Origin: Bdellovibrionales bacterium
GTDB taxonomy: Bacteria; Bdellovibrionota; Bdellovibrionia; Bdellovibrionales; UBA1609
DNA: 64,000 nucleotides
Assembly (NCBI GenBank): GCA_965197855.1
Contig: OZ240230.1
Span: forward strand, 960,153 to 1,024,152
Direction of reading: 5' to 3'
Positions 22,526 to 63,418 of the stretch are shown here, piece by piece; position 1 is the first letter of the stretch; each line of letters begins with the position of its first letter. The notes beneath the pieces are model-generated. The model did no database searches and was not told the origin of the DNA. It worked only from the letters and a program-made list of their open reading frames with translations. Made by a program: the position numbers and the translations under genes.

Positions 22526-22869
22526 GGGGGCGTTAGGCTTCGACGCAAATAATAAGCATTAGGGAGCATGCAGAGGTGCATGGGGACCTCTTTAAAAACG
22601 TGCATAAAACTAATTGGCAACTTTGCCACTTTAGCTGCTTAATTTTAAAGTAGCCGTGGAACCAACTTAGACGGCGAAGTTGGGGAAGCGTCGATTCAGT
22701 CGTCTCGGTTGACTGTTTTTCTCAGGCAGTGGGCTTAAATCAATGAGAAAAAACTTGAGGAAATTTTGCCTTTGGAAGTTCCTTTAAGTTTTTAAAACAG
22801 AGGCTGAGCATGGAGCACCCAAATGTAGAAGCTTTGCGGACACGAGTTCAATTCTCGTCGCCTCCACCA
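22526..22869 (+). ncRNA. ssrA: tmRNA (transfer-messenger RNA)
   Basis: 5' GGGGGCG pairs with 3' CGCCTCC-ACCA including a G3-U pair; GGCTTCGACG; T-arm ACGAGTTCAATTCTCGT; tag frame ends GGC AAC TTT GCC ACT TTA GCT GCT TAA (..GNFATLAA stop). Confidence 0.93.
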
Positions 22870-22873
22870 ATAA

Positions 22874-22907
22874 AATAGAAAAGGGGTTGTACAACCCCTT
22901 TTCTATT
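22874..22907 (+). terminator. 34-bp perfect palindrome / terminator after ssrA
   Basis: AATAGAAAAGGGGTTGT | ACAACCCCTTTTCTATT, T-rich 3' arm. Confidence 0.7.
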
Positions 22908-23050
22908 TTGTCGGGGCGAGAATTGAAGTGAGCGAGCGCTTTGTGTTGAGTGTGAAAACACTCAATACAAAGCAGAAAATCTGGAGATTTTCTGAGCGAG
23001 TGAAGGGAGCCTACGCAAAGAAAGAACGGGATGTGAGTGACTGTAGTAGG

Positions 23051-23071
23051 CAATTCTCGTCGCCTCCACCA
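23051..23071 (+). repeat. duplicate of the last 21 nt of ssrA
   Basis: CAATTCTCGTCGCCTCCACCA identical to 22849-22869. Confidence 0.95.
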
Positions 23072-23130
23072 TTTCTTCTTTTAGGAAAAGAAGGAAAAAT
23101 TTTAGCTTCTCTTCGTATATAGATGACAAT

Positions 23131-23229
23131 CTGTATTTTGAGATAGGTCATTCATGTAAACTATTCTTGCAAGATGGGAAACACATAACATTTATCGACC
23201 GTTTCAAAATGTCCTATCTCAAAATACAG
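23131..23229. repeat. 99-bp unit with 17-bp perfect terminal inverted repeats (MITE-like or long hairpin)
   Basis: CTGTATTTTGAGATAGG (23131-23147) and CCTATCTCAAAATACAG (23213-23229). Confidence 0.8.
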
Positions 23230-23374
23230 TGATGTACACTCTACAGGCTTTCATCAAACTAAAGTGAAGAGGAGGGAACTGCAGACACACAACTCGTTTA
23301 AGCCACTTATACAAAGTATTTCAACTCGACTTTACAATTTATAAGAATACTTTTAAAATACATTTCAAAACTCT

Positions 23375-23974
23375 ATGAACATTCGTCAAGACAATTTTAG
23401 CGGGGCCTCTGAAGATTACAAACGTAGATTATGGGTCGTTATTTTCTTAAACGCCTGCATGTTTATCGTAGAAATGCACGGCGGCTATTTCGCCAAATCT
23501 CAAGCGCTTAAAGCAGACGCTTTGGACTTTTTAGCAGATACATTAACCTATGGACTGTCGCTGTACGCCATTAAAACTTCCAAAAAAACCAAGGCAATGA
23601 TTGCCGGGCTCAAAGGTTTCAGTCTTATGATGATGGGGCTATGGATAGCCGGATCAACAGTTTATTTGTTTTTAACACCTTCAACACCAAAAGTTGAATT
23701 GATGGGATGGATTGGGTTTTTAGCTCTTATAGTAAACTTAATCAGTGTACTGCTTATTCTAAAATATAAACACGGTGATGTAAATATTCGTTCTGTATGG
23801 CTTTGTTCACGAAATGATGCCATTGGAAATGTCGGAGTTATTGTAACAGCTTTTCTTTCCGGTTGGATCAACTCTGGATGGCCTGATCTAATAGCGGCTT
23901 GTTTTATGTCAGCATTATTTATTCATTCTTCTTTTCAGATCTTTTCACAAAGCTATTCCGAATGGAAATCTTAA
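23375..23974 (+). CDS. cation diffusion facilitator family transporter, membrane domain only
   Basis: 199 aa, six hydrophobic helices; CDF-like motifs ALKADALDFLADTLTYG and NDAIGNVGVIV; no C-terminal cytoplasmic domain. Confidence 0.7.
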   Translation: MNIRQDNFSGASEDYKRRLWVVIFLNACMFIVEMHGGYFAKSQALKADALDFLADTLTYGLSLYAIKTSKKTKAMIAGLKGFSLMMMGLWIAGSTVYLFLTPSTPKVELMGWIGFLALIVNLISVLLILKYKHGDVNIRSVWLCSRNDAIGNVGVIVTAFLSGWINSGWPDLIAACFMSALFIHSSFQIFSQSYSEWKS

Positions 23975-63147: not shown

Positions 63148-63165
63148 TGACCACGAGTGGACTCG
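63148..63165 (-). repeat. duplicate of the last 18 nt of tRNA-Arg
   Basis: TGACCACGAGTGGACTCG identical to 63345-63362. Confidence 0.95.
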
Positions 63166-63311
63166 CCTACTACAGTCATTCGCATCCAGCTCACTCCTTG
63201 CGTAGGCTCTCTTCAGACACTCAGAAAATCGTCAAGATTTTCTGCCTTGTATTGAATACTTTCATATTTAACACAAGTCGTGTCTTCACTTCGAGTCCAC
63301 TGATGATAAAA

Positions 63312-63344: not shown

Positions 63345-63418
63345 TGACCACGAGTGGACTCGAACCACTGACCTGCAGTTTAGGAAACTGTTGCTCTATC
63401 CAGCTGAGCTACGTGGCC
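63345..63418 (-). tRNA. tRNA-Arg(CCT), CCA not encoded
   Basis: Reverse complement GGCCACGTAGCTCAGCTGGATAGAGCAACAGTTTCCTAAACTGCAGGTCAGTGGTTCGAGTCCACTCGTGGTCA folds as a cloverleaf with anticodon loop TTCCTAA. Confidence 0.92.

Follow-up and report, generated by a model that had tools for sequence, protein, structure and literature searches.

A duplicated tmRNA 3′ end in a Bdellovibrionales genome belongs to a family of structured modules behind stable-RNA genes

The ssrA locus and the unit behind it

The tmRNA gene ssrA of a Bdellovibrionales bacterium (assembly GCA_965197855.1, contig OZ240230.1) lies in a stretch of 64,000 nucleotides, here called the window, and is followed at a short distance by a second copy of its own last 21 nucleotides. 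Rfam detects a complete gene with a predicted tag (A)GNFATLAA and a gene-encoded CCA, at a place where ARAGORN makes no tmRNA call. The 21-mer, CAATTCTCGTCGCCTCCACCA, is identical in 21 of 21 positions at its two sites, which are separated by 181 bp. It occurs only twice in the whole single-contig genome of 1,397,683 bp, with up to 4 mismatches permitted, and 100 shuffles of the sequence gave no match to a repeat of this length. The first-pass annotation of the window had pointed out this perfect recurrence, a 34-nt perfect palindrome behind ssrA and a hairpin (CTTCTTTT-AGG-AAAAGAAG) behind the second copy, and all three are present where it placed them. It had read the repeats either as the ends of a reduced island or as the borders of a self-contained miniature element. 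The duplication of the tmRNA 3′ end is genuine, but no lost genomic island accounts for it. Misassembly is hardly a plausible source, since the same geometry, in which the first tail copy begins ~180–190 nt past the gene in most loci, recurs at ~15 other loci of the genome and in other genomes.

Together with the intervening DNA, the second 21-mer forms a unit of ~200 bp (22870–23071) that consists of four parts: the palindrome T1, an antisense arm L, a conserved multi-helix core of ~125 nt, and the 21-mer itself, R (Table 1). Within L, the sequence CGAGAATTGAA (22917–22927) is the exact reverse complement of the tmRNA T-loop and the 3′ strand of its T-stem (22847–22857, positions 54–64), a feature beyond those listed in the first-pass annotation; in addition, the GGGG of L could pair with CCUC of the acceptor strand. 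As L is antisense and R is sense, the insert after the palindrome opens with an inverted copy of the host tail and closes with a direct one. Folded alone, the ssrA unit is predicted to be closed by an L:R helix of 13 bp with one bulge, which leaves the tail UCCACCA free. In the predicted fold of a read-through product that includes the tmRNA end, L lies on the tmRNA T-arm instead and lengthens T1. This alternative corresponds to an imperfect palindrome around T1, which reaches from 22847 to 22927 and thereby pairs L with the T-arm.

T1 had been described as the ssrA terminator. It is a probable leaky or bidirectional terminator, yet it is an integral part of the repeated unit and not specific to ssrA: T1-like hairpins with a conserved CTGTAAG-type loop lie at the same position at many other loci. 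A simple terminator scan called neither T1 nor T2, the weak AU hairpin without a U-tract that follows R. No Rfam 15 family reaches its gathering score on the unit, and an Rfam scan of 22800–23400 with E-values up to 10 returned only the tmRNA end and noise.

Table 1. Features of the ssrA locus (coordinates refer to the window)
Feature	Position	Strand	Basis or remarks
tmRNA gene (ssrA), host of the module	22526–22869	+	Rfam RF00023, 142.6 bits, E 7e-56, model positions 1–374
Host copy of the 21-nt repeat	22849–22869	+	T-loop C56, T-stem 3′ strand, acceptor 3′ strand, discriminator, CCA
T1, 34-nt perfect palindrome flanked by A/T, first part of the unit	22874–22907	+	Related hairpins equally placed at other hosts
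L, host-tailored antisense arm GGGGCGAGAATTGAA	22913–22927	+	13-bp closing helix with R
Conserved structured core	22928–23050	+	Alignment A1, RNAalifold, covariance model R1, covariation
Core: P2 hairpin (GUGA precedes)	22938–22973	+	
Core: P3 hairpin, UGGAGA loop	22973–22994	+	
Core: invariant GAAGGGAG	23002–23009	+	
Core: P5 5′ strand GCCUAC	23009–23014	+	
Core: P4 region	23019–23045	+	
Core: P5 3′ strand GUAGGC	23046–23051	+	
R, second copy of the 21-mer	23051–23071	+	3′ strand of closing helix P1 and unpaired tail UCCACCA; starts 182 nt past the gene end
Module B, further tRNA-linked repeat (block of ~250 bp)	23072–23373	+	Genome BLAST; five-locus alignment
Module B: "fam2"	23072–23123		
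Module B: T2 hairpin	23075–23093		
Module B: "fam3"	23282–23373		
99-bp element nested in module B	23131–23229	.	22-nt terminal inverted repeats CTGTATTTTGAGATAGGTCATT ... AATGTCCTATCTCAAAATACAG

A family of host-tailored units with a conserved fold

BLAST searches of the genome and its relatives with 22526–23400 revealed that the DNA between the two 21-mers is multi-copy. The ssrA unit is one member of a family. The sequences downstream of each of the 35 tRNA genes and of ssrA (36 potential hosts) were compared, and a covariance model, R1, was built from an alignment of 18 units (A1). R1 finds 27 copies in the genome, all on the strand of the host and distributed behind 21 of the 36 tRNA and tmRNA genes. 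The first copies begin 37–69 nt past the 21 different host genes, an arrangement with a chance probability of ~1e-43; the match to the ssrA unit (22912–23068, plus strand, 153.5 bits) starts 43 nt past the tmRNA 3′ end. The common unit comprises an A/T-flanked T1, often with a CTGTAAG loop, a short spacer, L, GAAGUGA, two long hairpins, the motif GAAGNGAGCCUACGCAA, which is invariant among units, a further hairpin, UGUAGURGG and finally R. Measured from the end of the gene, the first tail copy begins at +179 to +187 nt in most loci and at +182 in ssrA. Units also form tandem arrays with a period of 200–203 bp, ~2.2 repeats and 99–100% identity, as seen with Tandem Repeats Finder and in the sequences themselves, and truncated copies are found behind Ala-TGC, Val-GAC, Gln and Trp. 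A second full unit is present in the window (63148–63305, minus strand), behind tRNA-Arg(CCT) (63345–63418) and with an 18-nt repeat, CGAGTCCACTCGTGGTCA. Behind tRNA-Cys (genome 341775–342282), a divergent subfamily forms an array of ~2.2–3 copies with a 173-bp period that scores only 44–53 bits with R1.

Both ends of the unit are copied from the host gene next to which it lies. R starts at T-loop C56 in every locus and ends at the discriminator (18 nt) or, if CCA is encoded, at CCA (21 nt; tmRNA and tRNA-Gly-TCC); in most single-unit loci its end coincides with the mature 3′ end or falls within 1–2 bases of it. At Thr-TGT, the repeat measures 25 nt and R runs 7 nt into the flank. Repeats of 55–219 nt occur as well, mostly in tandem arrays; throughout, the repeat keeps its T-loop border at 55/56, and only the opposite border varies. 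L is tailored in a similar manner, matching positions 54–65 of its own host in 10–12 of 12 positions in 17 of the 18 units. In the tmRNA unit, L matches, 11 of 11, the unusual T-loop TTCAATT, which is absent from all tRNAs of the genome. The mismatches in L at His and Ser-TGA are G.U wobbles, and in the Gly-TCC unit L is closer to Gly-GCC than to its own host. Overall, one family carries 21 host tails, all of them different. Two simple origins of these copies were discarded. Retro-priming of R from mature tRNA is out, given that R has CCA only if the gene itself encodes it and can include bases of the gene flank. Target duplication by a staggered cut of fixed length is out as the sole cause, given lengths of 18, 19, 21 and 25 nt or more, and it also leaves L unexplained.

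In four units, R breaks off after 6–7 nt (CRANTCC, or GAATCC for the remnant at Gln) and the hairpin CTTCAAAGACACACAAAGTGTCTTTGAAG takes its place (genome 640716–640760, 267905–267950, 756700–756745 and 481430–481475). Either a small insertion has recurred at these sites or the unit has a second type of right end.

The core is conserved as a fold. RNAalifold on the 18 copies, aligned with MAFFT, returned 42 pairs, 30 of which are compensatory. Among 55 copies from 12 genomes, 95.1% of the cells are paired, compared with 73.7% in shuffles, on an alignment that was fitted to the model and hence favours pairing; the result for the 18 copies, which uses MAFFT only, agrees in direction. Double changes are found at 40 of the 42 pairs, a number reached in none of 500 shuffles, and controls with slid partners are 33–45% paired. 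Within P2–P5, G.U cells outnumber A.C cells by 110 to 18 (~6:1; the cells are non-independent), and this excess argues for selection on the tRNA-sense strand. The fold is under selection on that strand, most simply as an RNA made from the host promoter. The P3 loop reads UGGAUG in most copies, GGA is present in 14 of 18 P3 loops, and the genome encodes csrA (698525–698680).

The family has a patchy distribution. Among relatives, 13 of 61 carry it, and a sample of 151 genomes from the whole phylum yielded 16 carriers. Copy numbers are 27, 19, 15 and 3 for the four species that make up g1, the genus of the present genome (G000), and 1–8 elsewhere. A tRNA lies just upstream in 33 of the 40 loci fetched from relatives. 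Their hosts include Leu-GAG, Pro, Asp and Ser-GCT, all unoccupied in the present genome, as well as Asn and three tRNAs that have nothing but truncated copies in the present genome (Trp, Gln and Ala-TGC). Between sister species, cores at orthologous tRNAs sometimes match (Ala-GGC 0.90, Leu-TAG 0.88), but often a core is closer to that of another host: the Arg-CCT core of the closest relative, G001, resembles that of Gly-GCC in G000 (0.90), and the Ala-GGC core of G002 resembles that of Arg-CCT in G000 (0.89). This mismatch between core and host implies an exchange of cores among loci, through conversion or renewed insertion. L and R fit the local tRNA even where the core belongs to a different subfamily.

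At ssrA itself, the comparison among relatives that the first-pass annotation had proposed gave a degraded version and unrelated DNA in place of the empty or island-bearing sites it had envisaged. In G001, whose ssrA is 98% identical, the first ~28 nt past CCA are kept and correspond to the left arm of T1; a different repeat of ~100 bp and then the same module B follow. This locus has no L, core or second 21-mer, and R1 gives only a weak match ~200 bp downstream of the gene end. In G002 (ssrA 91% identical) and G003 (76%), the sequence behind ssrA is unrelated. The other genomes with R1 matches have no copy near their ssrA. None of the three loci examined (G001, G002, G003) holds an island, and a clean empty site with conserved downstream synteny was not found, the G001 locus having been rearranged by another repeat.

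Several further repeats accompany the units. The hairpin behind R, which had been taken to belong to the displaced 21-mer, does exist, but it is part of module B, which opens with the hairpin TTTCTTCTTTTAGAAAAAGAAGCAAAA and is also found directly behind tRNA-Gln. Module B adjoins R at ssrA and tRNA-Arg(TCG), and the real 3′ end of the gene at tRNA-Gln (genome 481541–481790). Its other copies lie at 1164452–1164700 and 756440–756680; at Met(756913), it is placed downstream of R after a further hairpin, and at Arg(CCT) only the T2/fam2 hairpin stands behind R. At ssrA, the last bases of module B overlap the annotated start of a cation-efflux-like open reading frame (ORF) at 23375, and a promoter-like site is located at 23331–23359. 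The 99-bp element nested in this copy is present at the same place in G001 and missing from the other copies of module B, where the alignment shows a gap; it is probably a separate small miniature inverted-repeat transposable element (MITE). Another repeat family, which contains GTCATTCCTGCGAAAGCAGGAATCCAGA, truncates unit arrays at the right ends of Ser-GGA (genome 109300–109395) and Met (253100–253165). It has further sites at 756330–756360 and at locus L002, 1870–1960, replaces the ssrA-proximal unit in G001, and seems to insert into, or delete, tRNA-linked modules. Finally, a second, unrelated and shorter element (...ATGTTTGAACTGGCGTTCAAACATACTCAGGGG) is located behind tRNA-Ser-GCT (840828–840990) and tRNA-Glu (1313150–1313318) and likewise has the 3′ end of its host tRNA as its last segment. 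The genome therefore contains at least two different cores with the same docking architecture.

Origin and role of the module

The 21-nt duplication is probably the 3′ terminus, R, of a module that is docked on tmRNA, read through from it and processed as RNA, in the manner of the tRNA-linked repeats (TLRs) of Escherichia coli. The proposal of a self-contained miniature element thus came near the truth, with the qualification that the element would be a TLR-like structured module attached to its host. According to this model, some transcription from the tmRNA promoter would read through T1. In the nascent RNA, L would pair first with the 3′ part of tmRNA, and the extended T1 hairpin formed in this way is a likely processing site. 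L would then switch to pairing with R, closing the module as an RNA of ~160 nt that duplicates tmRNA in its terminal helix and 3′ tail. The enzymes of host 3′ maturation (RNase E/Z, exonucleases and the CCA enzyme) could consequently define and protect the end of the module. The invariant single-stranded GAAGNGAG and the loops that contain GGA are its likely business end and may constitute a protein-binding site. CsrA is a candidate for the protein, although its binding via the GGA loops is a lead only. At the DNA level, units would duplicate and be deleted by recombination between direct repeats, and cores would be swapped between loci. L and R would be tailored by copying of host DNA, for example through template switching at the T1 palindrome, and not by an integrase. 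Such switching at the T1 hairpin is suggested by the long quasi-palindrome of host tail, T1 and L, by full-length inverted copies in distant genomes and by the fixed boundary in the T-loop.

A number of observations do not sit easily with a processed RNA. G.T wobbles are tolerated in single-stranded DNA too, so that a hairpin intermediate of top-strand DNA is compatible with the pairing data. The tail of R (66–76) is unpaired in the model and yet host-identical, which RNA processing explains only loosely. T1, as a perfect hairpin of 19 bp, may terminate efficiently, and 4 of the 18 P3 loops lack GGA; moreover, CsrA is near-universal in the order and its presence hence uninformative. In distant genomes, L is a full complement of positions 54–76 including CCA and even of the flank, and R is short, as at Ser-TGA in G045 and Leu-TAG in G058. 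This combination points to inverted duplication at the DNA level rather than to selection for an L:R helix. Lastly, the patchy spread, the high copy number in a single genus with small genomes, the truncated copies and the nested insertions are all traits of selfish DNA.

Several of these points lead to an alternative that we regard as somewhat unlikely, namely a selfish, non-autonomous DNA element whose homing target is the T-loop and 3′ end of stable-RNA genes. It would move by hairpin formation or template switching during host replication and repair, or by means of a recombinase acting in trans, and its fold would serve mobility, as single-stranded DNA or RNA, rather than any task in the cell. 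The expansion of the family in g1 only, the truncation of copies behind four hosts, the nested insertions, the near-identity of tandem copies and the core subfamilies that are common to unrelated tRNAs but differ at orthologous tRNAs of sister species can all be read in its favor. So can the boundary that is fixed on the T-loop side and can enter the flank on the other, as well as the full inverted copies with flank in G045 and G058. Gene conversion, however, explains the exchange of cores without transposition, and the sixfold excess of G.U over A.C is more in line with RNA than with DNA. A search for a dedicated enzyme gave no candidate: genes for RAYT/Y1 transposases (PF01797) are absent from G000, G001–G003 and G019, reverse transcriptase genes (PF00078) are absent from G000, G003 and G019, among which are the genomes richest in copies, and no co-distribution with the family was seen for PF00589, PF01797 or PF00078. 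Invariant unpaired motifs and the retention of the units in a reduced genome of 1.4 Mb suggest a cellular use. The two explanations overlap, and the module could be both.

A very different origin was implied by the term attL/attR, under which a tyrosine integrase would have placed an island, or a miniature resembling a cis-mobilizable element (CIME), in ssrA. The direct repeat of a tmRNA 3′ end from the T-loop onward is the classical signature of such an event, and ssrA is reportedly a hot spot for islands, a view that is attributed to Williams (2003). The genome does contain one island of this type: a 415-codon open frame with a tyrosine-integrase domain (PF00589) lies 177 bp past tRNA-Ile(GAT), and the last 15 nt of this tRNA recur 63.5 kb downstream (genome 1201021–1264647). 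This gene is one of four with PF00589 in the genome, two of which look, judged by size, like the usual Xer pair; none is near ssrA. At ssrA, however, the insert is homologous to 26 copies behind 20 other hosts, each with the tail of its own host, and the unit contains neither an integrase fragment nor a conserved reading frame. Its palindrome and core are under structural selection, the repeat at times extends into the flank, and the relatives examined have no island at this site. Furthermore, when recombination takes place in the T-loop, the tRNA receives its positions 56–76 from the element, so that one family could not enter 21 hosts by single crossovers of an integrase without destroying them. 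An island reduced to its ends is thus unsupported and already close to refuted, and we consider it very improbable.

Still more remote, in our estimation, is an explanation by assembly artefact, by chance repetition or by a gene for a small protein (ORFs 22928–23122, plus, and 22784–23053, minus). On both strands, open frames of 53 codons do run across the unit, and a tiny ORF, tpr, is annotated inside the TLR of E. coli. The minus-strand frame is common owing to the purine-rich plus strand, no frame is open in all 18 copies, and the substitutions compensate for pairs instead of resembling those between codons; a protein-coding reading of the unit is out. Chance and misassembly fare no better, as no shuffle matched the repeat and the architecture recurs in 12 other genomes.

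If the model of a processed, read-through RNA is extended beyond this genome, TLR-type modules, the present family and the TLRs of E. coli among them, could be cross-phylum "hitch-hiker" RNA genes that live on the 3′ ends of stable RNAs and need no enzyme of their own. Template switching at the palindromic terminator would yield two copies of the last ~20 nt of the host, an inverted one (L) and a direct one (R), the closing helix and 3′ tail would borrow host transcription and maturation, and the resulting RNAs would signal to a regulator, for instance CsrA, that stable RNAs are being made. We offer this generalization as speculation that may well prove wrong. Independent of it, the present genome provides a case in which dozens of diverged copies and the occupation of most tRNA genes plus tmRNA within 1.4 Mb yield clear covariation and clear rules. 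Two long-standing questions on TLRs thereby become directly testable: how units are generated and tailored, and which role the RNA has. There is also a consequence for annotation, where short repeats of tRNA and tmRNA 3′ ends are routinely interpreted as scars of island attachment (att) sites. Here, this interpretation would be wrong at 21 of the 22 examined tRNA and tmRNA loci with a copy of the host tail.

Comparison with known systems

Integrase islands and CIMEs share with the ssrA unit an insert that is bracketed by a direct repeat of the host 3′ part from the T-loop, next to an intact host gene. In contrast to them, the ssrA locus has no integrase gene or cargo, and its 181-bp insert belongs to a conserved structured family that possesses an antisense arm, L, which att sites lack. 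This one family carries 21 host tails, whereas a family of integrating elements has one attP specificity, and the true island of this genome, at tRNA-Ile, comprises an integrase and a span of 63.5 kb. Repetitive extragenic palindromic (REP) sequences, bacterial interspersed mosaic elements (BIMEs), REP doublets forming hairpins (REPINs) and MITEs resemble the units in being short, non-coding, hairpin-forming and present in multiple intergenic copies, some of which double as terminators. Unlike these elements, every unit is located at a stable-RNA 3′ end in one orientation, has ends that derive from the host (L and R vary accordingly) in place of fixed terminal inverted repeats, and contains a multi-helix core with covariation of the RNA type. 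MITEs and REPINs differ further in that the repeat of the units, 18–25 nt or longer, is set by tRNA structure and is not a short target duplication, and in the enzymes that mobilize them: no RAYT/Y1 gene occurs in G000–G003 and G019, a search that did not cover the DDE families. A third group, formed by 3′ external transcribed spacer RNAs such as 3′ETS-leuZ and by sponges of the CsrB type, is comparable in that the RNA would come from the 3′ trailer of a stable RNA and would carry GGA in hairpin loops. Unlike the predicted RNA of the present unit, 3′ETS-leuZ is without a copy of the host tail.

The closest counterparts are the TLRs of E. coli, which are said to go back to work by Egan & Landy in 1978 and Rudd in 1999 and to include RttR/rtT behind tyrT-tyrV. 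They have been known since 1978 and, to our knowledge, have no accepted origin or function. In K-12 tyrT-tyrV, each 178-bp unit has an L arm, GGGGAAGGAT, that is the complement of ATCCTTCCCC inside the terminal AATCCTTCCCCCACCACCA, and the predicted fold of this unit is closed by an L:R helix with the tail CACCACCA free. A mobilome preprint that mentions rttR gives no evidence of circles. According to Stenum et al. (2021, PMC8144298), E. coli contains 22 TLRs at ten loci, and the last 18–19 bp of each are identical to the 3′ terminus of the tRNA or 5S gene that precedes it. The TLRs downstream of rrnA, rrnB and rrnD (RrA/B/F) have a terminator on either side and arise from read-through transcription; they are cleaved at the repeat, probably by RNase E, and bind both Hfq and CsrA in vitro (PMC8144298).

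The likeness between the two families extends to most of their architecture. The ssrA unit and the TLRs directly follow a stable-RNA gene and share its strand, their last 18–21 nt equal the host 3′ end, and a first terminator (here T1, a probable one) separates host and unit. Units occur in tandem, with a period of 178 bp and 3.14 repeats in E. coli and of 200–203 bp and ~2.2 repeats in the present genome, and the tyrT unit shares the complement of the host tail at its start, the L:R closing helix and the free ...CCA tail. The differences concern sequence, hosts and extent. R1 has no match in the tyrT-tyrV locus at E ≤ 10 and no sequence homology is detectable; the present family, from another phylum, has a core of its own, with P2–P5 and the motif GAAGNGAGCCUACGCA, and its R always starts from C56. 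It occupies 21 of 36 host genes, compared with 10 loci in E. coli, and includes tmRNA among its hosts, where the hosts listed for E. coli are tRNA and rRNA operons (PMC8144298). By analogy, we file the ssrA module as one that would work like a TLR without being its homologue. It offers a second, unrelated core with TLR architecture.

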